From an uncultured Bacteroidales bacterium (GTDB taxonomy: Bacteria; Bacteroidota; Bacteroidia; Bacteroidales; Bacteroidaceae): a stretch of DNA of 64,000 nucleotides. This document shows, piece by piece, positions 621-21,564 of this stretch (positions are counted from its first letter, which is position 1; each line of letters begins with the position of its first letter). The notes beneath the pieces were generated by a model. That model was given only the letters and a program-made list of their open reading frames with translations, was not told where the DNA came from and searched no databases. The stretch covers positions 30,877 to 94,876 of the forward strand of contig CADBXO010000010.1 in assembly GCA_902798685.1 (NCBI GenBank), given 5' to 3'. The position numbers and the translations under genes are program-made.

Positions 621-714
621 CCTTGAGCAGGACAAGCCGCGAATCCCGGACCGAAATAAGAAACGGCCCCCGCCGCAAAACATTCATCCCCAGCATCCCT
701 CGCAAAACTTGTAC

Positions 715-1180
715 CTAAGATGCCCAAATCGCACCTTCACCGGCTCGCCCGAACCAAGACCCTTCATCTTGGCCCAGTTGCCTCATGCCAAGAATACCGT
801 CGATACCATAATAACCGTTAGGATCCCCCATATCTTGACATCTTACCAAACAAGTAAACGCTATCATCCGGCTCCGTAGGAACACGCCTGCTGTTAATCA
901 TAGACCTCGAGCACCCCGTATCAAACACGAACCTATACGCATAGTTATTAATGTGAACATAAACAACAGCATGCCCGTTAGCCGTGCCTGCAATATACAG
1001 ATGAACCACATCGGGCCCCGAATCAAGAGCCATGTAATACATAGCCTCCTTAATGGAATCATTCACCTCCTTTAATCTGACCATGCCCGAATCCTTATAA
1101 GGCTGCCCCCATGATGCAGGCAAAAAGGCAAATAAAGCTGACAAAGAAATGAAAAAGGACTTTAAAGGTTTCATAAGCAA
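715..1180 (-). pseudogene. Retropepsin-like (clan AA) aspartyl protease, frameshifted
   Basis: ORF 818-1180 has a signal peptide and FVFDTGCSRS (DTG active site) but stops after 120 aa. The next frame downstream continues with GDPNGYYGIDGILGMRQL, the typical second block of bacterial retropepsins, up to a stop at 715-717. Confidence 0.5.
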
Positions 1181-1218
1181 ACAGTCATTCCGACCGCTAA
1201 GGTAACAAAAGATTTGTG

Positions 1219-1236
1219 GGCCGATGCACGCACGCT
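1219..1236 (-). repeat. Copy of the 18-nt motif AGCGTGCGKGCATCGGCC (reverse orientation)
   Basis: GGCCGATGCACGCACGCT is the reverse complement of 18856-18873 with 17/18 identity. The core CATCGGCCCA recurs at 1293-1307 and 1346-1358. Confidence 0.7.
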
Positions 1237-1423
1237 GATTCTTACTCGCTAGTTAGAGAAATTTTTCGCCCTAACTGGGGAGATAAAAATATGGGCCGAT
1301 TCGCGGGCGGGGGTTTTGTTACAGATACAGTGTTACAGTTGAAATGTGGGCCGATGCATTATTGAATAATTGAAATCATTTGAATAACTTTACTGCAAAC
1401 TAACTAGATACAATTAATGCCAC

Positions 1424-2674
1424 ATGAATAGAATAGTTCTTATTGGAAATGGATTTGACAGGGCACATAACCTTAATACATCCTACGAGCATTTCATTAA
1501 CTGGTATTGGGAACAAAAAGCACATCTATACCTATATTATCCATATAAAATAAATGACATACTCTTCACTTTACAGGAGAGAAGCAGTAGAGACGCCAGC
1601 TATCTGTACAACCACTTTAGGAGTAAAAATATAATAACGATAGATGAATTTAAACAATACATCCTCAATAATAACAGTGCGTATACAGCCATTTTTACTG
1701 AATTCTTCAAACACATAATAGAAGGAGTCGAAACCAATGAATGGGTTGACATAGAGAATGAATACTATCAACTCCTTAAGTACTATTCCGCTAATCGCAA
1801 AGATAGTGAAGCGCACCATTTAAATGAAGAACTAAAATACTTGCAAGATCTGCTTATAGAGTATTTGAAGAAAATTAGCAGCAAAGAACCAGACATAATT
1901 AAGGGGATAAAAGACGCCATTTACGAGCCGATAAGTCAGGATGACATTGCTGTTGAAGCTAAGACCAAATGGGAAGAATGGATAGCTTACTGGACCTATA
2001 AAGAAGAGATAGAATGGCGAAGAAGAGCTTATGATTTTGGAATAGAAGATAACAAAGCATATAGCTATGTTAATTATGCCCACGATTACAAAATAAGCCC
2101 ACAAAACTACAACGATATACCCACATTATTTAGGTTGCCCGAAGAAATAATGCTACTGAGCTTTAATTACACCCCAACAATAAAGATGTATTTACAGAAG
2201 GATAAGCAAGCTTTTTCCATCAACAACATCCATGGACAATTGGAACAACCTGAGTCTATCATTTTTGGACATGGAGATGAAATGGACGAGCAATTCAAGC
2301 AAATTCAAAACCTTAACAACCAAGAATATCTGAAGAATATCAAGTCTATCAATTACATGAAGTCCGATAACTATAGAAAAGTCTTAAGTTTTATTGAATC
2401 AGCACCATTTCAAATCTATATAATGGGGCATTCATGTGGGAACTCAGACCGAACTCTATTAAATACACTGTTCGAGCATGATAATTGCGTATCTATTAAA
2501 CCATTTTACTACATAAAGAAAAATGGCACAGATAATTACCTAGAACTAGTGCAGAACATAAGTAGAAACTTCAAGAGCATGAAACTAATGAGAGATAGAG
2601 TCGTGAATAAAGAATATTGCAAACCTCTGGACAACGAACAACAGAATAACATAGACACAAGCAATCAAAACTAA
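1424..2674 (+). CDS. AbiH-family abortive-infection protein
   Basis: IVLIGNGFDRAHNL at the N-terminus, then LLSFNYTPT, NIHGQLEQPESIIFGHGDE and IYIMGHSCGNSDRTLL. These match the conserved AbiH blocks as I remember them. Confidence 0.8.
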   Translation: MNRIVLIGNGFDRAHNLNTSYEHFINWYWEQKAHLYLYYPYKINDILFTLQERSSRDASYLYNHFRSKNIITIDEFKQYILNNNSAYTAIFTEFFKHIIEGVETNEWVDIENEYYQLLKYYSANRKDSEAHHLNEELKYLQDLLIEYLKKISSKEPDIIKGIKDAIYEPISQDDIAVEAKTKWEEWIAYWTYKEEIEWRRRAYDFGIEDNKAYSYVNYAHDYKISPQNYNDIPTLFRLPEEIMLLSFNYTPTIKMYLQKDKQAFSINNIHGQLEQPESIIFGHGDEMDEQFKQIQNLNNQEYLKNIKSINYMKSDNYRKVLSFIESAPFQIYIMGHSCGNSDRTLLNTLFEHDNCVSIKPFYYIKKNGTDNYLELVQNISRNFKSMKLMRDRVVNKEYCKPLDNEQQNNIDTSNQN

Positions 2675-2689
2675 TAAAACACCTCCTAC

Positions 2690-3115
2690 ATGGCAAAGAT
2701 ATACGTAGCATCCAGCTGGAGGAACCCCTACCAGCCCGAAGTAGTAAAGAAACTCAGAGAACAAGGTCACGAAGTCTTCGACTTCCGCAATCCACCAGAT
2801 GGCAAGGGAGGATTCTTCTGGAAGGATGTAGATCCCAACTGGGAGCAATGGACGCCTCAGGACTACATCAACAAACTTGACCACGAATGGGCTCAGTACG
2901 GATTTATGCGTGACTATGACGCAATGAAAGAAGCCGATGTCTGCGTTCTGGTACTCCCCTGTGGCCGTTCAGCCCACACCGAAGCCGGATGGATGGCTGG
3001 TGCCGGGAAAAAGGTGATTGCTTACATTCCCGAAAAGCAGGATCCAGAGTTGATGTATAAGATGTTTGATTTGATTACAGACAGTTTTGAAGAAATAATC
3101 GAACACATAGGTTAG
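2690..3115 (+). CDS. Nucleoside 2-deoxyribosyltransferase-like (NDT/TIR-like Rossmannoid) small protein
   Basis: 141 aa. KIYVASSW at the N-terminus, and ADVCVLVLPCGRSAHTEAGWMAGAGKKVIAYI matches the NDT-family 'aD.vva.l...D.GT.fE.Gya.a.GkPv' block with a candidate catalytic Glu. It starts 15 nt after the AbiH stop. Confidence 0.55.
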   Translation: MAKIYVASSWRNPYQPEVVKKLREQGHEVFDFRNPPDGKGGFFWKDVDPNWEQWTPQDYINKLDHEWAQYGFMRDYDAMKEADVCVLVLPCGRSAHTEAGWMAGAGKKVIAYIPEKQDPELMYKMFDLITDSFEEIIEHIG

Positions 3116-3125
3116 TCATAATAAC

Positions 3126-3863
3126 ATGGACCAAGAATTCGCTAATATTCAATTCAAGCCCATACGAAACAATGAATTCGCAAAGTGGTTTCAAGAAGTA
3201 CAATATAACGGCAGCGTACTATCAGACGTAGAACGGAAAGAATTTGTTTCAATGTTTGACGAGACCATAAAGAATTACACAGAAGGGCTCCCCCTTGCAC
3301 GCCAAATACTTGATATTTTCAGCGAACAACGTGATGATTATCACGAAACATATTGCACGGTTGTATCAGTTATGTTATTTGTTTTGATGACCATGATTGA
3401 CTGCATGGTTGCATGCAAATTCTTTATTTTGGCCGACAAAGATTATGATCGCAGGTTCATGCGTGGCAAGTTGATGGTTCTTTTGAACGAAGGTTTTAAA
3501 AAATTGTATGGCTTTGACGATAAGACGTATAAGAAATCCGAATGGGACAAATTATTACCATTAATGAAACGCTTCCCTGAAGTAATCAACCGTCAATATC
3601 AGGATTTAACATATTTACTTGAAAAGCACTCAAAGTCATCATCGTGGTGGAGAGAGGAAAGAAATCTTGAAATTCATTTAGAGGCTGTCAAATTGTATGA
3701 TTCACGCCAAGAGGAAATAATAGAAAGCAAAGTAGTCATAGACACGATGAAACTGTTCCGTTCTCTAATGGCAGTTAATGATTATTTATCCAACCTTCAC
3801 ACTTGTCTTTACAACTTCTTAGTTGACAAATTCCACAAGGGAGAATTGTTAATTACTCAATAG
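3126..3863 (+). CDS. Helical protein with HEPN-type RNxxxH motif (putative HEPN RNase)
   Basis: 245 aa, starting 10 nt after the upstream stop. ERNLEIH lies at aa 178-184 (nt 3660-3677), so R-N-x3-H fits the HEPN Rx4-6H consensus. There is also a hydrophobic helix, TVVSVMLFVLMTMIDCMVACKFFILA. Confidence 0.4.
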   Translation: MDQEFANIQFKPIRNNEFAKWFQEVQYNGSVLSDVERKEFVSMFDETIKNYTEGLPLARQILDIFSEQRDDYHETYCTVVSVMLFVLMTMIDCMVACKFFILADKDYDRRFMRGKLMVLLNEGFKKLYGFDDKTYKKSEWDKLLPLMKRFPEVINRQYQDLTYLLEKHSKSSSWWREERNLEIHLEAVKLYDSRQEEIIESKVVIDTMKLFRSLMAVNDYLSNLHTCLYNFLVDKFHKGELLITQ

Positions 3864-3895: not shown

Positions 3896-3903
3896 TATCT
3901 TTG
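3896..3903 (+). promoter_or_regulatory. Bacteroidetes -7 box TATCTTTG
   Basis: Exact TAnnTTTG 46 nt upstream of the Sau3AI-like ATG. Confidence 0.5.
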
Positions 3904-3948: not shown

Positions 3949-5364
3949 ATGGCTTCAAACAACCATTTAAAACTGCCCTACGACATCACAAGTGCCAAGA
4001 GCATCTTTGAATACAGCAAAGGCTTGCTAGGCAGAACTCTGCGTGATTTCACATGGGAGGGTTATGAGCCTAAAACCGGCAAAGGCGGTCTTGGGCAAAT
4101 GGTTGAGAATATATATTTCCTTCTTGAAACCAACTGCTATCCCGGCGCTGATTTCACAGAGGCTGGAATGGAACTGAAGTGCACACCTCTCAAAAAAAGC
4201 AAACAAGAAGAATTACTCATAAAAGAGCGCCTTGTTTGCAACATGATTAATTATTGTGAAGTTGTAGAACAAGACTTTGAACATTCTCATTTCTATCTGA
4301 AATGTCAGTTAATGCTTTTGCTTTTCTACCTTCACCAAGCAAACTGCGACAACCTGGATCTTGAGTTTCTTTTTTCCGTTTTATGGAAACTACCAGAAAA
4401 AGATTTGCTCATTATACGCCACGATTATGATGTCATAATTGGCAAAATAAAGCAAGGAAAGGCTCACGAACTGTCCGAAGGCGACACCATGTATCTTGGC
4501 GCTTGCCGTAAAGGACAGAAAGGTGAAAGCTTGATGAAGCAGCCCAACAATGACATTGAAGCACCCCGCAGAGCATTCAGCCTAAAAATGGCGTATATGC
4601 GTACCATTCTAGAGCACGTACTCAACAGCGGGAAAAATGCAGTCTCAAATGTCGCCGGGGTGCAATCTGAGTTAGTCAGCACGAAGGCTTTACTGAAGCA
4701 CTCCTTTGATGATATTCTACTAAGCCGTTTCAAGCAGTACTTGAAGATGCCTTATAAGAGGATTGCGAAACGCAAGAAGATTGACATTTCGAACAATCCC
4801 AAGAATAAGTTCGCAATGATTGCGAATGCCATTGCTGCATCAACTAATTGCTCAAATGTAAACCGTTCAGAAGAATTCCTTAAGGCCGGATTGACCATGA
4901 AGACAATCAGAGTCCAGGCCAATGGCAACATAAAGGAATCCATGTCTTTTGAAAACATAGATTACATCGAGGTTGCCGAATGTGAGGAATGGATTGACTC
5001 AAGGTTGTACGAGTTGTATTCCAGTAGATTCATGTTTGTAGTGTTCAAGGAACAGAATCAAGGAAAAGAAGATTATGTGCTGGATGATGTGTTCTTCTGG
5101 ACCATGCCACAAAAGGATTTGAATCTGGCTGAAGAATACTGGAATCATATCAAGACCAATATACTAGAAGACCATATATCTGAGGAATACTGGTGGAAAG
5201 GTGCGGACAGAAAGAAGTTTCATGTACGCCCAAAGGCCCAGAAAGCAGTTGACCTAGCGCCCACTCCAAGTGGTAAAAGTGCAAAGAAATACTGCTACTG
5301 GTTCAACAATGATTATGTTCGTGAAATAGTTTATAACCGTAATAAAGAAATCAATAATGCCTAA
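3949..5364 (+). CDS. Sau3AI/MutH-family type II restriction endonuclease (probable GATC specificity)
   Basis: TGKGGLGQMVENIYF...PGADFTEAGMELKCTP matches the MutH/Sau3AI catalytic block. The 471-aa size fits two-domain Sau3AI. It overlaps the C5-MTase gene by 8 nt. Confidence 0.75.
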   Translation: MASNNHLKLPYDITSAKSIFEYSKGLLGRTLRDFTWEGYEPKTGKGGLGQMVENIYFLLETNCYPGADFTEAGMELKCTPLKKSKQEELLIKERLVCNMINYCEVVEQDFEHSHFYLKCQLMLLLFYLHQANCDNLDLEFLFSVLWKLPEKDLLIIRHDYDVIIGKIKQGKAHELSEGDTMYLGACRKGQKGESLMKQPNNDIEAPRRAFSLKMAYMRTILEHVLNSGKNAVSNVAGVQSELVSTKALLKHSFDDILLSRFKQYLKMPYKRIAKRKKIDISNNPKNKFAMIANAIAASTNCSNVNRSEEFLKAGLTMKTIRVQANGNIKESMSFENIDYIEVAECEEWIDSRLYELYSSRFMFVVFKEQNQGKEDYVLDDVFFWTMPQKDLNLAEEYWNHIKTNILEDHISEEYWWKGADRKKFHVRPKAQKAVDLAPTPSGKSAKKYCYWFNNDYVREIVYNRNKEINNA

Positions 5365-7087
5365 CAATCACATTAGAGTAGTAGAACTGTTTGCCGGTGT
5401 GGGCGGTTTCCGCATTGGCCTAGAGGGAGCTTCTGATGCCTATGAAACCGTATGGAACAACCAATGGGAACCCTCAACCCAACATCAAGACGCTTCGATA
5501 GTTTACAGAGCAAGGTTTACATCCAAAGGCCACTCCAACAAGGATATTAACCAGGTACAAACAAAAGACATACCTGATCATGATTTGATAGTTGGCGGAT
5601 TCCCCTGCCAAGACTATTCCGTTGCGGCAAGTTTGAGCCGTTCTGGTGGCATCGAAGGAAAGAAAGGAGTACTTTGGTGGCAGATTTACCGCATTCTGAA
5701 TGAGAAAGGCGACAAACGGCCCAAATACATATTCTTTGAGAATGTAGATCGCTTACTGAATTCTCCTGCCACCCAACGTGGACGCGATTTTGCCATTATT
5801 CTGGCATCACTTGCAGACTTGGGTTACGTAGTAGAATGGCGTATAATTAACGCGGCAGACTACGGCATGCCTCAGCGCAGACGTAGGACATACATCGTTG
5901 GTTATTTGAAGGATTCTGTGGTAGCCCAAAAGGTTGAGGGGTTAGAGGAATGGGTAAAATATGACGGCGTCCTTGCACAGGCATTTACGTTCAAACCCAA
6001 GGAAAACACAGTTTCCGAATTTGATATTAAAGGCTCCATTCCCGAAGTATCCGCAAACTTCAACAAGGAAAAGAAGGGCAGTCCTTTTGGAAATGCTGGC
6101 GTAATGAAGGAGCGCCACGTATATTCTGTTGACGCAGAGCCTGTCTATGATGGCCCAAGACAGACCTTGGGGAGTAATCTGGTGGACGAAGACTTTGTGC
6201 CTGAAGAGTTCTTCATTTCAGATAAAGATTTAACGAAATGGCAGCGTGAAAAAGGAGCAAAGAAAATAAATAGGGTTTCAAAAGAAGGATACGAATACAT
6301 CTTCTCTGAAGGTGCGATGACATTTCCTGACGATCCAGACAAGCCTTCACGCACCATGATAACAGGTGAAGGCGGATCCGCGCCTTCAAGATTTAAGCAC
6401 GTTGTAAAGACGCCTTCTGGTCGCTTTCGCCGTTTGATTCCGGTTGAGCTGGAGCGCCTGAACATGTTCCCAGACAATCACACATATCACCCTGAAGTAT
6501 CTGATGGAAGAAGAGCCTTCCTGATGGGCAACGCCTTAGTTTGCGGTGTTGTTAGGGAAATTGGAAAGAGCCTATACCGCTTCATTTTTGACGAGGCACC
6601 GGTTTCGACACACCCTATTGATGAGAAGCGCAATCCACAGCCACATCTTACCATTGATCTCTTTGACACAAACGACAAGGAACTAATTATAAATAAACCA
6701 AAGAATAAAGGCGAACTGGATGTGACCAAGAGACTTCTCATAGGTTTTGTTAAGGAGGATAATGAAAAGTACTTCCTTACTGAAGGATCTTCTAAGCTGT
6801 ACTACACTGGCAATGTTAGCAGATTCCCATCAACCATTGCACTAAACAAGCTCTATTACTTCATGCCTTACATTAAAGGGAAAGGCGTAAAAGACATCTA
6901 CCTTATAAAGATTGCCAGAATTGGCAGCAAGACTGAGGTGCATCCAGAAATAGAAGATGCCAAGGCTCCAAGACTAGTATTTGAGCTTGAGTACTTGAAG
7001 AGCTTGCCAGAATATCGGATGGTCACTCTGAATTTCCAGCATGCTTTCACTGACACATACCTTGGCAAAGTGTTGCCTGAGAAATAA
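5357..7087 (+). CDS. DNA (cytosine-5)-methyltransferase with ~150-aa C-terminal extension
   Basis: Motifs in order: I ELFAGVGGF, IV GGFPCQDYS, VI FFENVDRL, VIII PQRRRRTYIVG, X LMGNALVCGV. About 150 further residues follow motif X. Confidence 0.9.
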   Translation: MPNNHIRVVELFAGVGGFRIGLEGASDAYETVWNNQWEPSTQHQDASIVYRARFTSKGHSNKDINQVQTKDIPDHDLIVGGFPCQDYSVAASLSRSGGIEGKKGVLWWQIYRILNEKGDKRPKYIFFENVDRLLNSPATQRGRDFAIILASLADLGYVVEWRIINAADYGMPQRRRRTYIVGYLKDSVVAQKVEGLEEWVKYDGVLAQAFTFKPKENTVSEFDIKGSIPEVSANFNKEKKGSPFGNAGVMKERHVYSVDAEPVYDGPRQTLGSNLVDEDFVPEEFFISDKDLTKWQREKGAKKINRVSKEGYEYIFSEGAMTFPDDPDKPSRTMITGEGGSAPSRFKHVVKTPSGRFRRLIPVELERLNMFPDNHTYHPEVSDGRRAFLMGNALVCGVVREIGKSLYRFIFDEAPVSTHPIDEKRNPQPHLTIDLFDTNDKELIINKPKNKGELDVTKRLLIGFVKEDNEKYFLTEGSSKLYYTGNVSRFPSTIALNKLYYFMPYIKGKGVKDIYLIKIARIGSKTEVHPEIEDAKAPRLVFELEYLKSLPEYRMVTLNFQHAFTDTYLGKVLPEK

Positions 7088-7103
7088 TAAAAACTGAAAA
7101 CAT

Positions 7104-7559
7104 GTGATTACCGAGCAACAGCGACATTACATCATGTCAAGAATCCGGGGAAAGGCAACGAAACCGGAACTTCTTGTTAGGAGCTGGCTGTGGAAGCACG
7201 GATACAGGTACAGGCTTAACGTAAACAGTGTTCCCGGTAGGCCTGACATTGTTTTAAGACGTTATCGGACTGCCATATTTGTGAACGGTTGTTTTTGGCA
7301 CGGTCATGAGGAATGCGGAAAACCTTCAATCCCCAAGAGAAACACAGAGTTCTGGGTGACTAAAATAGCACGAAACAGGGAACGAGACCAACGCAATTAC
7401 AAAGATTTACACGATGCCGGTTGGTATGTATCAGTTATATGGGAATGTCAACTAAAAAAAAATAATATCGAAGCTACGATGCGTAGTATAGAGCACGCAT
7501 TGAATACCCATCTTCTAGAAATGTATAAATGCAAAAACTACAATAATAACACGAATTAG
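7104..7559 (+). CDS. vsr: Very-short-patch repair endonuclease
   Basis: IMSRIRGKATKPELLVRSWLWKHGYRYRLN..PGRPDIVLRRYRTAIFVNGCFWHGH...NTEFW..KI..N..RD matches the Vsr blocks. GTG start as given in the ORF track. Confidence 0.85.
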   Translation: MITEQQRHYIMSRIRGKATKPELLVRSWLWKHGYRYRLNVNSVPGRPDIVLRRYRTAIFVNGCFWHGHEECGKPSIPKRNTEFWVTKIARNRERDQRNYKDLHDAGWYVSVIWECQLKKNNIEATMRSIEHALNTHLLEMYKCKNYNNNTN

Positions 7560-7898
7560 CGTCCCTAGTTTAATAAAGACCGCACTGCAAGAATTCGTCT
7601 CAAATCGATTTAAGCAATCGTTGTTGTTATGACGTGTAACAAAACCAACGACTGGTCGAGCTGTAGCGTCACTTCAATAGCGAATCGATTAATAGCTAAA
7701 AACGGAGTATCTTTGAACCGCCAAGAATGACACATGGCCATGATGACACGTATTAAGACCTTTTGTTTTATATTGCCCAACAGTGTCTGTTAATAAAAAG
7801 GGTTTCTAATAAGCCATTTCTTATGGTAAAAGAAGTTACCTTTACGCTCAAGCATATGGGGGCGTTTCGCACACTTTAGTAACCAACGACAATTATGT

Positions 7899-10800
7899 AT
7901 GGGGAGAAAATTATACATATACTCTGATCATAATCGATATGAGTACCGTATTGAGCATGGAGATGTACCCTTCCTGAAAATCGGTGACACTGGACAGGAA
8001 GACACAAGTGTCCGAGTGGGACAACAGGACACCACCAGTTCTAGCGAGCCTTTAGATATAAAGTATGAAATAGGATTACCCGACGGAATAAGGGACCATG
8101 ACATTCATGAGTTTTTACTCTCTAAGAATGTCCCTATTACGCGTATAGACAAAAAAAGAGAATGGTTTCAAGTTAAGTTAGAAGAGGCAATTCTTCTAAT
8201 TAACGAATTTCTTTATGGAAGCCATCGTCCAGATAGTTATGCAATGCGCGATGAGCAACAATTAGCTCATGATAAAATCGTAACCTTTTTTAATTCACAT
8301 GATTCTGAACCTAAAGCAGAGTTTTTACTTGCTGCAAAAATGCGTTTTGGTAAGAATTTCACCTTACTAAACGCAATTAAAACTCTTAAGTGTAAGATAG
8401 TATTGGTAATAACATATAAACCTTGGGTTTTTGATTCACTTGAGAAAGACATTAACAATCACGTATTATTTGAAGACTTCCAGTATGTTGATTTCCTTAA
8501 AGACAGATGCTTGTGTACATTATGTGATTCAAAAGTTAATATTATAGTTGCATCTGCTCAATTAAGTCTCAATGAGAGCAAGGACAACTCCAACAACGAA
8601 AAGGACCAAGCTGACAACATCCTCAATAAGATTCGTCAAAACTTGCAGACACTTAAGAGACTCCATTTTGATATGATTATTGTAGATGAGTACCACTACG
8701 GTACTACTACGGCCAATTTTAAATCATTATTAAATGAGCTTGATTATTCGCGACTTGTATATGTTAGTGGTACAGCTATGCGTGATATCCAATCTCATAG
8801 ATTTGATGATGATCAACTTTTTAATTGGACCTATATTGATGAGCAAATGAAACCCGGCAACGACATGCCCCGAATGAGATTATTTGCCTTGTCGCTTGAC
8901 GAATCCATTATAAAAGAAGCTCAGAAATATTATGCTGAGGATGATTATCCCAATATGACTAAATTATTTGAAGTGGATAAGAATAATGAATTTGTTCACA
9001 AGAATATGGTCAGCATGACTCTCAAACAGATATTCGGGATAGGAGGACAGCACAGACAAGCTAGCCCATTTCTAATAGATGGAATAGATACGCCCAAGCA
9101 TATATTTTGTTTGATGCCACCAAATGTTAGGTCTATACAAGCGATGTCAAATCTAATAGAAAGAGATTATGGACACCGTTTTGTAGTTATTAAAGCCAGC
9201 GGTTCCGATGGCGTGAAAACAGAGAAAGAACTTCTATCCCATATAAATAAAGCTAAAGCAGATAATAAATCCACCATTACATTATCGTGTATTCGTTTTC
9301 GTGAGGGAGTGACTATACCAGATTGGGATAGTGTAATAATGCTCGACGATGGAGAAAGCGCAGTATCCTATTTTCAAGCCATATTTAGATGCCAATCCCA
9401 AAGAAAAGAAAAACCACTAAAGCGAGAATGTTTTGTTTTTGATTATAACCCACAGCGCATGTTGATGCTGACATATCTAATGACTGAAGTTCAGAGTCTT
9501 ACTTCTAAAGATAGTCATCAACAAACTGCCAAACGATTCCTGGACTGCGCACCAATGGTAGGTTATGACGCACAAAATAAATTATACAACGTTGATATAG
9601 ATTATTTGCTTTCTTCATTCTTTATAGGGAATAAAGTAATTGGCAAAGGCTTCCGTTCATTTGATCAAGAAAGGAATTTCAACCTCGAAGCACTTAATAA
9701 TATTGACAAGGCATATATTAAATTGCTCCCACAGATAAAAAATGGTAAGCATAAAACTATTATTGAAGTAGTAAGCGATAACCGTATAGGTGGAGGAAAA
9801 ATCACAAAAGGAAGGAAAGTTAAGAAAAGTGGCAGGAAGGCTAAACAAAACGAAATAGAGAGTTTAAAACAATCATTGAGATACATCTCAAGTCGTTTAC
9901 CAGAGTACATGTTTAACACTATCGAGAACGAGCATTCGTTACAAGATATCCTTGATACTGAAACTAAAGCTAGCTATTCTTTTTTTCGAGACCTTTGTCT
10001 AACAGATCTAGAAGTATTTAAGCAATTGATCAAAGACCAAATCCTCGACGAACGTCTTATGAACCGACTTATTAGCAACTATAAGATGGAGGAGGATAGT
10101 TTTTGGAAGAATCGCACCCCAGAAGGATATGATTATATGAGTAAGAAATACTTCATTGACAGTGAAGAAGAAATTAAAACTCCTATCGTATTAGCCAGAC
10201 TCATGTTAGATATGTTACCTGATGACATATGGTCTAACCCAGAAATATCCTTCTGTGATATGGCATGTAAAGACCCATCGTTTTTACTTGTAATCAAATA
10301 TCGTTTAATGGAAGGATTAAAAAGCACTATTCCTGATGATGAGACGCGTGAACAGCATATCCTAAAGAACATGCTCTATGGCCTGTGTCGTACTAAAACT
10401 CAGCAGAACTTCATATGCCGCGTTTTAAAAATGGGAAAACACAGTAAACACATTATTTTTTGCAATAATAATATCCAAGATTTTTTAAAACATACTGTAG
10501 ATATGCCTAAGTTTGACATAGTAGTTATGAATCCGCCATACAAAAAAGGAATACACCTTGGCTTCCTTCAGCAGGCTATAAACATTGGTAAGAAGATTAT
10601 TCTTAGCATACAACCGGCACAATGGTTAATGAGCGAGAAAGATATGCTAAGAATGCGTAGTGGAAAAACACAAGAATTTTGCACTGAATATTTAAACAGG
10701 CATGGTGCTAATATTAAATTAGTAGATGGCCAGAGATTCTTTGATGCTGAAATAGCTTCATACCTAGGTATATTTTATTTTGATAAAGAAAAGACACAAA

Positions 10801-11381
10801 GGATTACGATTGAGGATGCTTCAGGTTTAGTTGCGGAATATGACAATGTGTCTAGCGTTTCTAAATACGGAAATGCGCCTATCTACCTTGGATTGAAAAA
10901 GAAGATATTAGAAGCTGCAGACAAAGACAACCTGCATACACATGTCAGAGTTACCTCAAAGTTTCTAGCTAATAAGACTTTCCCATTTGAGGACCATCCA
11001 AAAGAAAAATACTTTGTAAGAATAGCAAGAATTAGAGGGCATGTGGCAAAAAATGGCTATCAAGATGACTTCTATACTATTATACCTGATGACAGAGGAG
11101 TGGACACCGATGTTAATGATGCTACTATGTATTTCAGTTTTAATAACAAGCAAAATGCTTTGAATTTTATTACTTATCTAAAAACAGATTTTGCCCGATT
11201 TGCATTATCAATGTATAAATTAAACACATCACTAGACACTGGTGAATTGTATGCAATTCCATGGCTCGATTTTTCAAAAGTATGGGACGACAATAAACTT
11301 GAAAAACTATTTTCCATCACTAGCGAAGAAAGGTCTTTTATTAGAGCACATATCCCTGATTTCTATGGAATACGCAAGTAA
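7899..11381 (+). CDS. T5orf172(GIY-YIG-like)-SF2 helicase-N6-adenine DNA methyltransferase-TRD fusion protein
   Basis: aa 5-100: LYIYSD..FLKIGDT..VRVGQQ..HEFL..REWFQV, T5orf172-like. aa 145-300: AAKMRFGKNFT (Walker A-like with GKN), IIVDEYHYG (motif II) and VSGTAMRD (motif III). aa 760-885: TPIVLARLML (X), FCDMACKDPSFLL (degenerate I) and DIVVMNPPYKKG (IV, nt 10530-10541). The C-terminus is a TaqI/Eco57I-like TRD ending in LFSITSEERSFI. Confidence 0.7.
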   Translation: MGRKLYIYSDHNRYEYRIEHGDVPFLKIGDTGQEDTSVRVGQQDTTSSSEPLDIKYEIGLPDGIRDHDIHEFLLSKNVPITRIDKKREWFQVKLEEAILLINEFLYGSHRPDSYAMRDEQQLAHDKIVTFFNSHDSEPKAEFLLAAKMRFGKNFTLLNAIKTLKCKIVLVITYKPWVFDSLEKDINNHVLFEDFQYVDFLKDRCLCTLCDSKVNIIVASAQLSLNESKDNSNNEKDQADNILNKIRQNLQTLKRLHFDMIIVDEYHYGTTTANFKSLLNELDYSRLVYVSGTAMRDIQSHRFDDDQLFNWTYIDEQMKPGNDMPRMRLFALSLDESIIKEAQKYYAEDDYPNMTKLFEVDKNNEFVHKNMVSMTLKQIFGIGGQHRQASPFLIDGIDTPKHIFCLMPPNVRSIQAMSNLIERDYGHRFVVIKASGSDGVKTEKELLSHINKAKADNKSTITLSCIRFREGVTIPDWDSVIMLDDGESAVSYFQAIFRCQSQRKEKPLKRECFVFDYNPQRMLMLTYLMTEVQSLTSKDSHQQTAKRFLDCAPMVGYDAQNKLYNVDIDYLLSSFFIGNKVIGKGFRSFDQERNFNLEALNNIDKAYIKLLPQIKNGKHKTIIEVVSDNRIGGGKITKGRKVKKSGRKAKQNEIESLKQSLRYISSRLPEYMFNTIENEHSLQDILDTETKASYSFFRDLCLTDLEVFKQLIKDQILDERLMNRLISNYKMEEDSFWKNRTPEGYDYMSKKYFIDSEEEIKTPIVLARLMLDMLPDDIWSNPEISFCDMACKDPSFLLVIKYRLMEGLKSTIPDDETREQHILKNMLYGLCRTKTQQNFICRVLKMGKHSKHIIFCNNNIQDFLKHTVDMPKFDIVVMNPPYKKGIHLGFLQQAINIGKKIILSIQPAQWLMSEKDMLRMRSGKTQEFCTEYLNRHGANIKLVDGQRFFDAEIASYLGIFYFDKEKTQRITIEDASGLVAEYDNVSSVSKYGNAPIYLGLKKKILEAADKDNLHTHVRVTSKFLANKTFPFEDHPKEKYFVRIARIRGHVAKNGYQDDFYTIIPDDRGVDTDVNDATMYFSFNNKQNALNFITYLKTDFARFALSMYKLNTSLDTGELYAIPWLDFSKVWDDNKLEKLFSITSEERSFIRAHIPDFYGIRK

Positions 11382-12069: not shown

Positions 12070-13602
12070 ATGGAGTTTTCATTAAAAGACAACAACTATA
12101 TGGCTCCTTTTATGGGAGAGAAAAAACTGCCAAGTTTTGGACTAAACCCTTTAGGCATTAGAACAGCCTCCGAGCAACTTTTTACCACCCTCTTACCTGG
12201 ACTTAACGTCGTTACATTAAGAGTAAGATATTACAGTTTTTATTGTTGGCTACTAAAAAACTTTTATGAGCCTAGGACAGATGCCCATCTTTATGACTTT
12301 AAAAAGCACATCAGAACCTCAGAGTTATTAATGGCATTAATTCATGCTAATAGTAATACTCCTAAAGGGATACCGGGTATAACAAGAGCAAATGAGATAA
12401 TAAACAGAAATGGAGAAAATATTTTCTTTTTAGATGACGCAATGCCCGATGGCAAAGCCACCGGAGGATATTGGAAAGGAACCAATGGCGCCTTGGGAAC
12501 ATATTATGCTGCTTCAATGCAAGAAATCGGTCTTATTCTTCCATTAACAAAGAACAATAAATTCTACAATGTAACACCCTATACTGATTCGTACATCTCT
12601 GGAGAACAACTGGCGGATGCTTTTGAAAATACAATAGGTAAAGATTTGTCATCTTCATTCCGAGAATGTGCCCAAACCTGCGCTGTAACGAAATCCCAGC
12701 TCGTAGAAATGGAAACCAAGTTTCAGACTCATATAATGCCTAATAATGAAGAACGCCGAATCCTTCTAAACATGTTGCTTCAAAAAGACACACCAAGAAG
12801 CGACACAGAAAGTTATATGCGACGAGATACATTATGCTTTCTGTTGAACTATATTCAAGACAATGATTATCAACCCTTCACAGAGTTAGGTTTTGCCAAA
12901 TACATGTACGAAAGCTACAAGAAAAATAGATTTAGCAATATTACAGCTCTTGGATGGTACGACTATTACTTAAACGATAATAGACAATTTGAAGCTCTCA
13001 ACCTATTTGATGAAGTATTGGAGAGATTGATTAATAGTCAAAGACCTGGCAAATGGGAAGAAATTGAAGACTTCTCAAACAAACTGGCATATGAAACATG
13101 TTCAGATTTTGGAAACCCACATGAAAAATTATCCTCATTATTCTCCCGTTGGGAAACAATTTCGACCGCCAATCTCACTAATACTATATCCAAAGCATTT
13201 TATAGATTCTTTGACGACTACGTTAGAAATGAAGGATACGAAAAATGCAAAGAAGAAATCAAAAGAAAGTTTTGGAGTGTTCGCAATGATGCCATAGATT
13301 TTTTTGACTCGATAAAAAAATGCTTGGATTACACATTGGTTGATTATATCAAACAATTCCTGAAACAAAATATCATATACGGACACTATGGAGAGGCTAT
13401 GAGAAAATATGCTCAGAACGGCGTACCAACACATAAATTATTGATTGAAGATGGTTATGTCAAAGGTCTTGAAAGATATGGCTCATCACATAGTTCTCCA
13501 CGTGTTGAAACATTATACACCTTTGCTACAGATCTTGGAATAATAGATAATAATCAGCTAACTAATGATGGCAAAGAACTCTTAAAGATGATAGCAATAT
13601 GA
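12070..13602 (+). CDS. Unknown 510-aa protein, partner of the PLD-motif protein
   Basis: Long uninterrupted ORF in an AT-rich region. Its stop overlaps the next ATG (ATGA at 13599-13602). I recognise no catalytic motif. The N-terminal block is GLNPLGIRTASEQLFTTLLPGLNVVTLRVRYYSFYCW. Confidence 0.7.
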   Translation: MEFSLKDNNYMAPFMGEKKLPSFGLNPLGIRTASEQLFTTLLPGLNVVTLRVRYYSFYCWLLKNFYEPRTDAHLYDFKKHIRTSELLMALIHANSNTPKGIPGITRANEIINRNGENIFFLDDAMPDGKATGGYWKGTNGALGTYYAASMQEIGLILPLTKNNKFYNVTPYTDSYISGEQLADAFENTIGKDLSSSFRECAQTCAVTKSQLVEMETKFQTHIMPNNEERRILLNMLLQKDTPRSDTESYMRRDTLCFLLNYIQDNDYQPFTELGFAKYMYESYKKNRFSNITALGWYDYYLNDNRQFEALNLFDEVLERLINSQRPGKWEEIEDFSNKLAYETCSDFGNPHEKLSSLFSRWETISTANLTNTISKAFYRFFDDYVRNEGYEKCKEEIKRKFWSVRNDAIDFFDSIKKCLDYTLVDYIKQFLKQNIIYGHYGEAMRKYAQNGVPTHKLLIEDGYVKGLERYGSSHSSPRVETLYTFATDLGIIDNNQLTNDGKELLKMIAI

Positions 13603-16109
13603 TTGAAAGAAACAACATTATAAACTTATTGTCAAAAAGAGTAAATGTATATCATTCAGCCATTTTGACTTGTTACAACTTTGATTCTGTTTTCTTTGAA
13701 TCTGTTTACTTGCCCAAATTACGAAAAATAGGAGTTGTAAATATAATTGTTGTCATGGATGCTGGCATTTATGATTCCATGCTTAACGATATAAACTACA
13801 AATATCACCCAGTTGGAGGAGCAGATTATACACTTTTAAGAAAGGCAAATAATCATTTTGGTGTATTTCACTCCAAAATAACAATGCTCTTCGGTAAGGA
13901 AGAAGGCATATTAATTGCCGGATCTGGAAACATTACATTTAGTGGATTATCGCAGAACGAAGAGATTTGGAACGCATTTCACATAAAGGGTAACGAATCT
14001 CCTTTCTATCCTCTATATTATAATGCATGGAAATACATTAAAGGTATCCTACATAATATTCCATTTCTTGCAAGAAAACAGATTGATTGGATAGAGGAAA
14101 ATAGCGAATGGATAGTCAAGAAAACAGACAACCTGCCAGTAGTTTTAAAAAACGGAGAGTCATTATGGTTGCTCTACAACGATACATCAAATAAGATATT
14201 TGATTCATTGGTTTCTATCATAAATAAAAACACAGTTAAGGAGATAACTGCTATTGCACCTTTTTATGACAATAAAGGAGAGGCTATCACCGCATTAAAA
14301 AAAGCTTTTAACCCATCTTCATTTCGTTGCATACTAGATAAAGAAAGACACAGTGCTCCATCCTTATTATTTGATAAAGAATATGGTTTTTCTTTTTATG
14401 AATACCTTAACAAAAGCCATTTACTTCATGCTAAATTATTTGAATTCAAAACAGATAGCGGAACTTGGATAATGAGTGGCAGCGCTAATGCCAGTGGTTT
14501 AGCTTTTGGAACTAATAGTAATAGATATAACGATGAATTATGCATTCTTATTCATAACCCCAAGAATATTGATTATATAAATGAGCTTGAGTTGATTAGT
14601 AACATCAACCAAATTAAAAATGAAGAATTAAGAAAATTCGAAGCATTAAATCCTAATAAGAAAGAAACAAGTGAAAGAGAAGTTTACATAAACTATTCTG
14701 AATATGATGAAACTGGGCTCCACATCTCATTCTCAGAAGAAGGTCACAAAGGTTCGTTATTAGTTTTGGATAAGCAAGCTAACGTTCGCTTTAAAACTGA
14801 TATAACGACTATATATACCATCAACGTTAACATCCCCGATGAAATAGAAGGCGTCATAAACTTCGTAGTACTTCAAAAAGATGGAGTGGACATCTCAAAT
14901 CGTAGTCTGGTAATAAGAGAAAACCAAGTTGAGAAACAGAATCCTGATTCCAAACATCGAGAATTAACAAAACTATTAACAGAAGAAGGACTATTTGAAA
15001 ATTTAGACAACATATTAAAATTCATTAGTTTCGAGGAGAAGAATGAGATAAATGTATCATCTGGAGGGATTAGCACAAATAAACAAAATGAGAATGATGA
15101 TGGCCCTTCAATTCAAAAAGAAGACTTTTATGCTTTAAAAGACAAAACAAAGCAAAGTATTAGTTCAAAGCCTAATGTGCAAATTCTAGATTATATATCA
15201 TTATACTTATTTAAAGTGCAGACAGAAGCTATAGGCAATGATCAAAACCAAAGATTAGAAGAAGCCAATCCGGAGGATGACTCATCATATGATGAACAAG
15301 TTGTCGATTATAACTTAGCTCAAAAAAGCGAAGACATCATTCTTAGATATCTAAAAAGGATGAATAAGTTTTATGTCAAAAAGATCAAACAAACTGACGA
15401 AAGTTGCGCTATAGCTGGCGAAGTGGATCACCTTCATATTTTTACGGACAAACCGGATATCAATGCATTCTGCTCTTTAGCTATTGCATGTAAAATGGTG
15501 TCATATATGGTGAGCACCAATGGCGCATTGATGACGAAAAAGGATAAAATTAAAACATTATTATTAGAAAACTCGACTTTATTCTTCGCTATTTATTATA
15601 ACCATTTTCCATCTGAGAACACGAATGAAGACAAGAAAAGCAGGATAATACTAACAGAAGCAATAGCACAATTAATGGCCGCTCTTTCATCTTTTTACTT
15701 TTACAAGGAAGAAAACGATCTAATTCTTTCTCTGTTGAATTGTTTTGATTATTGCGGCAAAACATCCACTCAATTATTAAATGATAGTTTTAATCAGTAT
15801 TGTTCTTTGATAAACGAAATGGATACAGTCAAGGATTCTACTGTATCTTTAATCAAAAAAATATATAGCGTATATTCTAGCAAAACTGACAATCCTTTAA
15901 TAAACTTCTCCATTTATATGGATACAATATTCATTCGGAGAAACAAGTATGGTTTCTTATTAGCAAAGGTTAAACACGATAATAACGTCGAATCAAACAT
16001 CTGGAAATACACTTATCATCATCCAAGAATGAAATATATAACTCCCAAAATATACTACGGGGTAAGCAAAAAATCATTTATAGGATACCGATCAGAAGTA
16101 TTCCATTAA
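13599..16109 (+). CDS. Phospholipase-D-superfamily (two HKD motifs) protein with ~500-aa C-terminal region
   Basis: HKD-1 is FHSKITMLFGKEEGILIAGSGNITFSGL (aa 90-116, from nt ~13866). HKD-2 is LHAKLFEFKTDSGTWIMSGSANASGL (aa 276-301, from nt ~14424). Both fit H.K....x(n)GS.N. An acidic low-complexity linker and a helical C-terminal part follow. Confidence 0.75.
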   Translation: MIERNNIINLLSKRVNVYHSAILTCYNFDSVFFESVYLPKLRKIGVVNIIVVMDAGIYDSMLNDINYKYHPVGGADYTLLRKANNHFGVFHSKITMLFGKEEGILIAGSGNITFSGLSQNEEIWNAFHIKGNESPFYPLYYNAWKYIKGILHNIPFLARKQIDWIEENSEWIVKKTDNLPVVLKNGESLWLLYNDTSNKIFDSLVSIINKNTVKEITAIAPFYDNKGEAITALKKAFNPSSFRCILDKERHSAPSLLFDKEYGFSFYEYLNKSHLLHAKLFEFKTDSGTWIMSGSANASGLAFGTNSNRYNDELCILIHNPKNIDYINELELISNINQIKNEELRKFEALNPNKKETSEREVYINYSEYDETGLHISFSEEGHKGSLLVLDKQANVRFKTDITTIYTINVNIPDEIEGVINFVVLQKDGVDISNRSLVIRENQVEKQNPDSKHRELTKLLTEEGLFENLDNILKFISFEEKNEINVSSGGISTNKQNENDDGPSIQKEDFYALKDKTKQSISSKPNVQILDYISLYLFKVQTEAIGNDQNQRLEEANPEDDSSYDEQVVDYNLAQKSEDIILRYLKRMNKFYVKKIKQTDESCAIAGEVDHLHIFTDKPDINAFCSLAIACKMVSYMVSTNGALMTKKDKIKTLLLENSTLFFAIYYNHFPSENTNEDKKSRIILTEAIAQLMAALSSFYFYKEENDLILSLLNCFDYCGKTSTQLLNDSFNQYCSLINEMDTVKDSTVSLIKKIYSVYSSKTDNPLINFSIYMDTIFIRRNKYGFLLAKVKHDNNVESNIWKYTYHHPRMKYITPKIYYGVSKKSFIGYRSEVFH

Positions 16110-17914: not shown

Positions 17915-18589
17915 ATGGAGAAAGAAAAACTAATAGATGACATCAATACAAAAGGAAGTAATAGTCTTATTTCCATTTGGTACAACATAGGAAGAGCACT
18001 ACCTTTCAGAGCACAAAGATTCCCAGATGGAAGAGTTTCTGACTGGTATAGAAATCAGTTTGTTGAAGTACATAGTGTTAAACCCGGCGGCAAGGGTGGC
18101 ATATATGGACACGCCTATGGTTTTTACTTCAGAAATGGAGTTAGAGCTAATGCCTCTGACCGTGAAAGCAGTTGGTGTAAGATAGATGATACTGAACCCA
18201 AAGAAATACCATGCGGGGCTTGTGGTTCTTGGGTTCTGTTAGATATTCTTGGCGAACCGACGCAGGAGCATACAAAGGTCTATGGATTAAATGACACCTT
18301 GGATTTTGGTAAGCACAAAGGAAAAACGCTGCAAGAGATAATCCGTGATGATTTCCAGTGGATAAAATGGGCACTTGATAATTCTGATCATTTTCATTGT
18401 GATATTGATGCCGTCATAGAAGAGCGGAACAAAACCATAAAAAGATACTATCCTGATGATGTTATTACTTTTGGAAAGTACAATGGACAAACCATCAGAT
18501 ACATCTATGAGAATGACATCAACTATCTACGATGGCTGATGGATAAGGCTGAGGATTTTATTATTGATATTTCAGAGCTGAGAAAATAG
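17915..18589 (+). CDS. Hypothetical protein with two DUF3820-like (FGKxKGxT...W) C-terminal repeats
   Basis: LDFGKHKGKTLQEIIRDDFQWIKWAL and ITFGKYNGQTIRYIYENDINYLRWLM are two copies of the motif. Confidence 0.5.
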   Translation: MEKEKLIDDINTKGSNSLISIWYNIGRALPFRAQRFPDGRVSDWYRNQFVEVHSVKPGGKGGIYGHAYGFYFRNGVRANASDRESSWCKIDDTEPKEIPCGACGSWVLLDILGEPTQEHTKVYGLNDTLDFGKHKGKTLQEIIRDDFQWIKWALDNSDHFHCDIDAVIEERNKTIKRYYPDDVITFGKYNGQTIRYIYENDINYLRWLMDKAEDFIIDISELRK

Positions 18590-20345: not shown

Positions 20346-20391
20346 TTGTTTTTGATATCATGATGTATAACCTAATTAATACTTGTTTGTT

Positions 20392-21564
20392 ATGACATTG
20401 AAAGACATTCTTAGTCCTAAGTACAATGATGCTGTCCATCAGATTAAGGCAGCTATTTTGCAGAGTCAGTCTAAGGCTCTTGCTAGTGTTAACCAGGAGC
20501 AGCTTGCTCTTTACTATGGTATCGGCCGGTATATATCCTATAATACCAGAAAGGGGTATTGGGGTAAAGATGCTATTTCTACTATTAGTAAGCAGTTGTC
20601 AATTGCGATGCCTGGGCTTAAAGGTTTCTCTTCTAGTAATCTGAAAAACATGAGACTTTTCTATGAGCAATGGAAATGTTTGGACACCAATTCGTCAGTC
20701 GCAACTGATGAATTGCAAAAAAGTGTAAATTCGCCAGTCGCGACTGGCGAATTGCGAAAAAGTGTAAATTCGCCAGACGCGTCTGGCGAATTAGGCTCAA
20801 ACATCATTACAGCGAACATTCATCATTTAGATATACCCATAGCTGCCTTTTTTAGCATCAGTTTCTCTCACCATATTTTGATACTATCAAAAACCAACTC
20901 TATCCAGGAACGTTATTACTATGTACAATTATGCGCTGACTTAAAATTGAGTCATGAAAAACTGACACGCATAATAGCAGAGGATGCATACCACAATCAA
21001 GGAAAGATGCCAAACAATTTCAGTGCAGCTATTCCTGATGACAAACAAGCGTTCAAAGCCATACAAATGTTCAAGGACGAGTATCTGCTTGACTTTATCA
21101 ATGTTGAACAATTAGGGCAACGTGAAGAGGATATTGATGAACGTGTGATAGAAAATGAGATTGTACACAATATCAGGAATTTCATAATGACTTTTGGTAA
21201 GGGTTTTGCGTATATCGGAAACCAAGTTCATTATGATAAACTTGGGCATGACAGTTGGATTGATTTGCTGTTCTTTAATAGGATTCTTAGGTCACTTGTT
21301 GTGGTTGAACTTAAAAAAGGATCTTTCAAGCCAGGTTATTTGGGACAACTCTCCCACTATCTTCACATCCTTGATGATGATGAGAGGATTGAAGGTGAGA
21401 ACCCACCGTTAGGCATTATTTTGTGCAAAGATGCCGATAAGACTTTTGTGGAATATGTCCTTCAAGATTACCAGCGCCCAATGGGAGTTGCCACTTATAG
21501 AGCTAATCAGGAAAAGCTCAAGCAACTGCTTCCGGATGAGGAAGAAATGAAGAAGTTGCTGTAG
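20392..21564 (+). CDS. DUF1016 / YhcG-family PD-(D/E)XK nuclease-domain protein
   Basis: N-terminal YhcG-like part (LALYYGIGRYI...NLKNMRLFYEQW...SHHILILSK...ERYYYVQL). The C-terminal part, IDLLFFNRILRSLVVVELKKGSFKPGYLGQLSHYLHILDD, is the PD-(D/E)XK core. I prefer the ATG at 20392 to the TTG at 20383. Confidence 0.8.
   Translation: MTLKDILSPKYNDAVHQIKAAILQSQSKALASVNQEQLALYYGIGRYISYNTRKGYWGKDAISTISKQLSIAMPGLKGFSSSNLKNMRLFYEQWKCLDTNSSVATDELQKSVNSPVATGELRKSVNSPDASGELGSNIITANIHHLDIPIAAFFSISFSHHILILSKTNSIQERYYYVQLCADLKLSHEKLTRIIAEDAYHNQGKMPNNFSAAIPDDKQAFKAIQMFKDEYLLDFINVEQLGQREEDIDERVIENEIVHNIRNFIMTFGKGFAYIGNQVHYDKLGHDSWIDLLFFNRILRSLVVVELKKGSFKPGYLGQLSHYLHILDDDERIEGENPPLGIILCKDADKTFVEYVLQDYQRPMGVATYRANQEKLKQLLPDEEEMKKLL
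20689..20792 (+). repeat. Three in-frame 39-nt tandem units, each carrying a 26-bp palindrome
   Basis: Units start at 20689, 20728 and 20767. Unit 2 (AATTCGCCAGTCGCGACTGGCGAATT) and unit 3 (AATTCGCCAGACGCGTCTGGCGAATT) are perfect palindromes. They differ at the symmetric positions 11 and 16. Confidence 0.9.

Follow-up and report, generated by a model that had tools for sequence, protein, structure and literature searches.

A defence island was examined in a 64,000-nt stretch of the genome of an uncultured Bacteroidales bacterium (GenBank assembly GCA_902798685.1, contig CADBXO010000010.1, positions 30,877–94,876; this whole stretch is referred to as the window), in which a gene of the AbiH family heads a tight cassette together with genes for a small protein of the nucleoside 2-deoxyribosyltransferase (NDT) fold and for a HEPN-like protein. 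An initial annotation made from the sequence had delimited three same-strand open reading frames (ORFs) with gaps of 15 and 10 nt, and these coordinates were confirmed. ORF1 (1424–2674, + strand, 416 aa) encodes an AbiH-family SIR2-like protein (PF14253), a predicted NAD+-consuming abortive-infection effector; ORF2 (2690–3115, + strand, 141 aa) encodes an NDT-fold N-glycosidase-like protein with the candidate nucleophile E98; and ORF3 (3126–3863, + strand, 245 aa) encodes an all-helical HEPN-like protein with the invariant motifs NEGFK[KR] (E122, K125) and R179-[ND]-x3-H184, the gaps falling at 2675–2689 and 3116–3125. Upstream, 243 nt of non-coding sequence separate ORF1 from the nearest ORF (818–1180, − strand). 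Downstream, an 85-nt gap leads from the end of ORF3 to a Sau3AI/MutH-like type II restriction endonuclease (REase) gene (3949–5364, + strand; PF02976, 125.5 bits; PADLOC REase_II, E 4.8e-72), which is contiguous with genes for a cytosine-5 DNA methyltransferase, Dcm (5357–7087, + strand; PF00145, 214.2 bits), and a Vsr very-short-patch repair endonuclease (7104–7559, + strand; PF03852, 97 bits), giving a type II restriction-modification (R-M) system with Vsr at 3949–7559. In this defence-island operon, a known abortive-infection gene is combined with R-M accessories that are uncharacterised. The cassette lies at the 5′ end of a Bacteroidales defence island, where it probably forms a mosaic operon with layered defences rather than a dedicated three-component system.

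Within the cassette, a conserved promoter-like leader occurs upstream of ORF1 only (1362–1404, + strand, with the near-consensus Bacteroides −7 box TAACTTTA at 1385–1392). This leader is that of NDT-led operons: in L185, L187, L182, and L023 (comparison loci are cited by number) its sequence, TTGAATAATTG..CAATTGA.TA.CTTTACTGCAAA.CTAAC, stops 5–20 nt short of the start codon of NDT, and in the window the same leader directly precedes the ATG of AbiH. The + strand of the three-gene cassette contains no TAnnTTTG motif, a pattern that is not enriched across the window (51 found versus 45.7 expected), and the REase gene possesses a Bacteroides-type −7 box of its own (TATCTTTG, 3896–3903, + strand) 46 nt before its ATG. 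With a leader only before ORF1, no internal −7 boxes, and a separate box for the REase, the suggestion that the three genes form one operon is probably right. Scans for sigma-70 promoters and terminators were uninformative in this Bacteroides-type genome, and a search of the 243-nt leader for riboswitches and other non-coding RNAs gave no Rfam match at E values up to 1.

The three genes are distributed independently of one another. Among the first 195 loci tallied, which were gathered with different queries and are phylogenetically not independent, all three genes were present in two (one being the window's own allele), NDT and ORF3 in 11, AbiH and NDT in six (adjacent in one), ORF3 only in 14, NDT only in 85 (a further 79 viral loci come on top), and AbiH only in 76. 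A conserved co-occurrence of the trio across unrelated contexts was thus not found (2/195 loci). The linkage expected from the initial annotation was confined to a near-identical allele with the same layout (L016, 93% nt identity) and to a single other context with different flanks (L017), where AbiH→NDT→ORF3 occur at 69%, 91%, and 78% identity, and partial sets were commoner. At least four contexts have the NDT→ORF3 pair without AbiH, in most cases immediately before the same Sau3AI-like REase/Dcm/Vsr operon: in L182–184 the gene before the pair is encoded on the other strand and the gene after it specifies a PLD/DEAD/DUF3427 protein, in L186–191 two different upstream flanks precede the same Sau3AI-Dcm-Vsr operon (the ORF3 protein of these loci being found on 15 contigs), and the pair is also present in L179–181. 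The REase/Dcm/Vsr block is conserved in L016, L023, L029, L179, L180, and L186–189, and is headed by NDT only in L029 and by NDT→AbiH, in reversed order and with no ORF3, in L023. Neither AbiH nor ORF3 was found beside NDT in any of 77 metagenome loci or 79 viral loci.

Comparison with L182 suggests how the arrangement arose. Window positions 622–1281 are 92–99% identical at the nucleotide level to L182 4358–5454, with several internal deletions in the window, and the left flank reaches 98% identity, while the NDT–ORF3 segment is only 78% identical to that of L182, and because the flank is near-identical and the cargo is not, the two appear to represent the same chromosomal site with exchanged cargo. 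Since the leader that elsewhere precedes NDT here precedes AbiH, AbiH appears to have been inserted into an NDT-led operon; judged from sequence, it occupies the slot between the promoter and leader of such an operon and NDT. In L023, the slot after NDT is taken by another AbiH allele, which is 54% identical. The co-transcription of the trio therefore probably reflects insertion of a cassette into an existing operon, and the locus illustrates cleanly how cassettes are shuffled behind a common leader in an operon of a defence island.

ORF1 is, on its sequence, a bona fide AbiH-family member, matching Pfam PF14253 at 92.6 bits (cut-off 30.9, E 5.7e-26) over profile positions 2–253 of 260 and the PADLOC AbiH model weakly (E 4.3e-9), mainly over the N-terminal 160 residues; Pfam gave no domain in it beyond AbiH. 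The AbiH blocks that the initial annotation had picked out are present, and the residues G8-N-G-F-D12, N248-Y-T250, H270-G271, and G335-H-S-C-G-x-S-D342 are invariant among 30 relatives. When the AlphaFold 2 (AF2) model of ORF1 (mean predicted local distance difference test [pLDDT] score, 85) was compared with the PDB using Foldseek, the top 18 matches were the SIR2 subunit of SIR2-HerA/Nezha, at modest scores (E 4.5e-3 to 0.18; best probability, 0.87; template-modelling score, about 0.3); sequence-only PDB searches gave no SIR2 match for AbiH, the structure comparison alone having produced one. The invariant motifs would map onto the SIR2 catalytic residues. In the literature AbiH is sirtuin-like (the ‘SIRim’ group), and a cloned AbiH is a one-gene SIR2-like system giving 5.7 logs of protection. 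Being a one-gene, SIR2-like system in these accounts, AbiH is more plausibly an NAD+-consuming effector with built-in sensing than a mere sensor, and by the same analogy ORF1 very likely acts independently of ORF2 and ORF3.

ORF1 resembles AbiH of Lactococcus lactis in the PF14253 domain and the GNGFD, NYT, HG, and GHSxGxSD motifs, and its model is closest to defence SIR2 subunits, but where the usual AbiH relatives are mostly solitary and often located in prophages, ORF1 heads a polycistronic unit with NDT-like and HEPN-like genes. A relative at 56% identity is followed by a DUF2971-like gene and accompanied by neither NDT nor ORF3, and a scan of genome contigs with ORF1 returned four loci at ~40% identity that also contain neither partner, too few for statistics. 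Among 73 viral-contig loci with AbiH relatives (30–43% identity), none had ORF3, five had an NDT gene 2–4 kb away on the opposite strand, and in most the gene following AbiH was on the opposite strand; no conserved downstream partner was apparent in these loci and nine genome or metagenome loci. The DUF2971-like protein (256–259 aa) also recurs as a cassette in these islands, being located directly after AbiH in L018–L022 (about 7241–8011 in L018) and directly after Vsr in L180 (4673–5443), L187 (9455–10234), and L029 (259 aa).

ORF2 is a putative NDT-fold, N-glycosidase-like protein by its profile matches and motifs. It scores 28.6 bits against PF05014 (E 1.7e-6), 0.2 bits short of the cut-off of 28.8, and 20.4 bits against PF15891 (cut-off 30), its close relatives carry a precomputed PF05014 match, and with phrog_12607 (‘nucleoside deoxyribosyltransferase’) the match of ORF2 reaches E 1.9e-60. 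The candidate catalytic glutamate that had been proposed in SAHTEAGW is borne out: this segment aligns with the catalytic-glutamate block GTHIEIGW of the cytidine monophosphate (CMP) N-glycosidase 4jen (E 5.4e-5), and also with that of 4jem, an N-terminal strand motif is shared, and E98 is invariant in 30 relatives within a block of the form xxExG[WY]. The closest structural relatives, MilB/BcmB (4jem, 4jen), are CMP/hydroxymethyl-CMP hydrolases. ORF2 thus has the catalytic-glutamate block, N-terminal strand motif, and PHROG 12607 match of NDT-fold N-glycosidases (PF05014; MilB/BcmB), but differs from them in falling below the Pfam threshold, in conserved motifs specific to its own family (YVASSWRN, DFRNP, VLPCGRS, and PELMYK), and in its characteristic neighbours, Vsr, Dcm, and REases. 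An NDT-like domain is also a proven anti-phage effector in retron Ec86, where it depletes adenine nucleotides; compared with that effector, ORF2 lacks the retron reverse transcriptase, the multicopy single-stranded DNA, and the extra lobe.

The ORF2 family is large (more than 8000 matches), and at least 551 matches occur in IMG/VR viral contigs within runs of small phage genes. Homologues are also carried by a Rhizobium phage, by mycobacteriophages, where they lie near thymidylate synthase and MazG, and by plasmids of mycobacteria and B. fragilis. The initial annotation had allowed that ORF2 might prove to be a housekeeping deoxyribosyltransferase found without AbiH; its relatives, several close ones included, do occur without AbiH almost everywhere, but in mobile and defence contexts rather than housekeeping ones. 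In chromosomal loci the commonest immediate neighbour of NDT is Vsr (8/60 same-strand neighbours; adjacent in 10/77 loci, namely L075, L076, L089, L096, L097, L103, L104, L105, L047, and L029, with NDT at ~6001–6420 in full-length loci), and REases, PD-(D/E)XK nucleases, and helicases come next. The order REase→NDT→Vsr is frequent, with NDT lying between REase and Vsr in several 5-methylcytosine (m5C) R-M operons; L194 (6001–7195) is among the loci in which Vsr or dcm neighbours NDT, and on the B. fragilis plasmid pBFO17_1 dcm begins 10 nt after the NDT gene. The Vsr/dcm neighbourhood points to a tie of NDT to cytosine-5 methylation or very-short-patch repair. The ORF2 family and its association with Vsr and R-M systems are not described in the literature searched, where both AbiH and NDT-like domains in defence are already known.

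Some NDT loci bear additional cargo. The closest NDT relative in an NCBI metagenome-assembled genome (88% identity; L185, 6557–8052) heads a pair of genes for an AAA_15/AAA_21 ATPase and a DUF3226 protein, which is other defence-like cargo behind the same leader. L017 (3906–7969) and L054 (~6500–10500) share an R-M set downstream of NDT that consists of a C5 methyltransferase of ~421 aa, a 70-aa helix-turn-helix protein, and proteins of 296 and 320 aa, the orientation being inverted relative to NDT in L017.

ORF3 gave no match in Pfam, PADLOC, NCBIfam, PHROGs, or PDB sequences, and its family, which is undescribed, comprises 937 close relatives, all unannotated, and 130 more distant members from a profile search of 1.84 billion cluster representatives. 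The initial annotation had pointed to an RNxxxH motif (R179-N-L-E-I-H184) and put its chance occurrence at about one percent, an estimate that held: the motif is expected 0.012 times by composition and appears in 1.1% of shuffles. Because the looser Rx4–6H pattern appears in 56% of shuffles, the conservation of the motif and not its mere presence carries weight. All of 27 close relatives have R179 and H184, and across 29 members with identities as low as 16%, E122, K125, R179, and H184 are the sole invariant residues (29/29 each), with D or N after R179 in 24 and K or R at position 126 in 22. The HEPN hallmarks are Rx4–6H with a polar residue (N/D/H) after the arginine and a second acidic residue in Ex3[KR] (PMC3710099), and both are conserved across the family to that level of identity. 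About 20 tandem relatives of ~500 aa (476–512 aa; including P0426, P0449, P0458, P0472, and P0483–P0487) contain two copies of the ORF3 domain, most with E-G-[FY]-K-x-[LI]-[YF]-G and R-[DNQ]-x3-H in both halves, a layout compatible with an active site shared by two HEPN domains. From these motifs and the genomic context, ORF3 is probably HEPN-like. A HEPN_Apea match in one of the 29 relatives (E 0.036) and a ThsB match of ORF3 (E 0.04) were rejected as noise, and D92…E122xxK125 was rejected as a PD-(D/E)xK nuclease motif for its wrong spacing in an all-alpha protein.

In every context seen, ORF3 adjoins DNA-restriction-type genes, and none was found in the viral-contig scan or the plasmid search. 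Where it occurs alone, it lies upstream of a Dam/AlwI R-M system, beside an integrase/type I HsdS shufflon, or after an AAA_23/HerA-like/DEAD-helicase locus; a 243-aa gene upstream of NDT in L024 proved not to be an ORF3 relative. Linkage to R-M systems is among the commonest contexts of HEPN proteins, with PrrC/EcoprrI as the worked example. ORF3 shares with the R-M-linked HEPN RNases (PrrC/EcoprrI, ApeA, and other R-M-embedded clades; Anantharaman et al. 2013, PMC3710099) the Rx4H motif with D or N, the Ex3[K/R] motif, helicity, proximity to restriction genes of several types, and tandem two-domain relatives. Unlike the PrrC-type enzymes, it has no ABC-ATPase or other regulatory domain, and its partners are type II rather than type Ic systems. 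A role as obligatory controller of the Sau3AI-like R-M system was rejected, as the same system occurs without ORF3 in L023 and L029.

On the reading of the cassette as a mosaic, a pre-existing operon of NDT-like gene, ORF3, Sau3AI-like REase, Dcm, and Vsr would have gained AbiH at its front; the biochemical activities and any cross-talk are given here as we infer them. By analogy with other defence sirtuins, ORF1 itself would sense a phage component and then destroy NAD+, and ORF2 and ORF3 would be accessories that DNA-restriction systems can do without. ORF2 would cleave deoxynucleotides of the pool, possibly modified ones (5-methyl-, hydroxymethyl-, or otherwise phage-modified deoxynucleoside monophosphates), and we propose, as a rather doubtful suggestion, that it might be a pool sanitation enzyme aiding restriction or m5C systems. 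ORF3 would be a HEPN-type RNase held as a second line behind the neighbouring restriction enzyme on the PrrC/EcoprrI principle; by this analogy, it could serve as such a back-up with a likelihood somewhat short of even. That both would prove to be unrecognised restriction helpers, ORF2 as a pool N-glycosidase and ORF3 as founder of a new family of R-M-guarding HEPN RNases, is unlikely; if true, invading DNA would stay open to restriction, or m5C-methylating hosts would be protected, through the destruction of modified deoxynucleotides, and together with AbiH the operon would provide a three-layer defence of pool sanitation with restriction, RNase back-up, and NAD+ depletion. In a rarer variant, NDT may be a direct partner of the SIR2-like AbiH and might, for instance, cleave intermediates of NAD salvage.

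Several observations weigh against this reading, some of them bearing on the linkage of the genes and others on the HEPN assignment. The order of the trio is kept, with gaps of 4–12 nt, in the second context (L017), AbiH and NDT lie side by side in two lineages, in one order in the window and in the other in L023, and NDT adjoins AbiH in three of the four distinct contexts, to which the inspected sample of close AbiH relatives (≥54% identity) was limited. Given the adjacency in both orders and in three of four contexts, a functional synergy of AbiH and NDT stays alive as something that may exist. The AF2 model of ORF3 consists entirely of helices, but its confidence (pLDDT 75.5) drops below 50 exactly at residues 178–185, Foldseek searches of the PDB and BFVD with this model returned no HEPN protein and nothing better than E 0.1, only generic helical bundles, and profiles of the ORF3 family and superfamily found no consistent match in PDB, Pfam, or PADLOC. 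The identification of ORF3 as a HEPN protein thus stood as far as both conserved sequence hallmarks are concerned and found no counterpart in fold or profile comparisons.

The initial annotation had suggested that AbiH may be the sensing part of one integrated system, in which the NDT-like enzyme would make or process a nucleotide signal and ORF3 would be the HEPN RNase effector. The tight spacing behind a single leader and promoter, the retention of the trio in a different neighbourhood in L017, and the combination of SIR2-like, NDT-like (related to the TIR-type fold), and HEPN-like parts, which is typical of signalling defence, all fit such a system. Each gene is, however, mostly found without the others, AbiH is a validated one-gene system, Pfam recognised no signal-sensing domain on ORF3 or AbiH, and NDT–ORF3 is retained next to restriction genes without AbiH, so that the integrated system is very unlikely and the sensor role proposed for AbiH was not upheld. 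Thoeris (ThsA/ThsB-type signalling defence) likewise places a SIR2-like protein beside a small Rossmannoid NDT/TIR-related enzyme in one operon; here, by comparison, the genes show no conserved co-occurrence, AbiH and ORF3 are without a ligand-sensing domain, and ORF2 is not a TIR protein. Because AbiH would not need its neighbours, the cassette is not to be catalogued as a new three-gene system.

A smaller unit can be imagined in NDT–ORF3 as a two-gene defence system, complete in itself, that needs neither AbiH nor the R-M genes and in which either ORF3 senses or regulates and NDT depletes nucleotides (compare retron Ec86), or NDT restrains a HEPN toxin. The pair recurs with gaps of 4–35 nt in its four or more contexts, one of them without the Sau3AI R-M system, NDT-like domains are proven effectors in the retron, and HEPN proteins are common toxins. 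Against this, most NDT genes lack ORF3 (about 160 loci) and ORF3 stands alone in four contexts, and since each occurs alone, neither needs the other; moreover, NDT genes are 88–94% identical where the adjacent ORF3 genes are only 67–72% identical, which argues against tight co-evolution, and we regard a two-gene system as improbable. ORF2, and possibly ORF3, might instead serve a mobile element as a nucleotide-metabolism or counter-defence enzyme of phages or other mobile genetic elements that hitch-hikes on defence operons. The viral-contig matches within runs of small phage genes, the mycobacteriophage homologues near thymidylate synthase and MazG, and a link drawn in the literature between phage NDT and a modified-base pathway favour this, as does an ORF2 homologue fused to PF11195/DUF2829. 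Yet the promoter-proximal position of NDT in chromosomal REase/Vsr/helicase operons would be odd for an anti-defence gene, ORF3 is absent from the viral contigs and plasmids searched, and viral presence is itself ambiguous, as defence genes are often prophage-borne, all of which makes service to a mobile element decidedly unlikely. The fusion protein (P0221, 244 aa) is 65% identical to ORF2, and PF11195/DUF2829 is presumably the family that includes the Thoeris anti-defence protein Tad2.

Read as a mosaic, the operon draws attention to two families. ORF3 represents a Bacteroidales family of roughly 900 members with both HEPN hallmarks, a candidate for the theme of restriction plus RNase back-up, which current defence catalogues miss since no PADLOC, Pfam, or NCBIfam model fits it. 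ORF2 represents an abundant, strongly conserved NDT-like family of gut phages and defence islands, the preferred neighbours of which (Vsr, Dcm, and restriction nucleases) hint that the chemistry of the nucleotide pool is connected, in a way so far unexplored, with DNA restriction or methylation.

Defence-type genes extend to about 22 kb of the window. Downstream of Vsr, a 1160-aa fusion of T5orf172, helicase, and methylase domains (type IIG-like; 7899–11381) is followed within the island by genes for a 510-aa protein and an 836-aa PLD-domain protein (12070–16109), an ExoX-like protein (17915–18589), and a YhcG/DUF1016 PD-(D/E)XK protein (20383–21564). Upstream of the cassette lie a HicA/HicB pair (11–576) and, in the island's conserved left flank, the decayed remnant of an aspartic-protease-like gene (818–1180, − strand), which has no Pfam match on its own and matches a gene that is intact in L182 (332 aa); by this comparison, the left flank is decaying in this genome. 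Between the remnant and AbiH, TGTGGGCCGATGCA occurs in two exact copies (1215–1228 and 1345–1358, + strand) and a degenerate third (1290–1303), and its core TGGGCCGATKC is also found in L016, L017, and L182–184; the repeat may be an operator or an element resembling repetitive extragenic palindromes. Words of the GGCCGATGC type are over-represented across the window (23 matches with ≤3 mismatches versus 5.6 expected).

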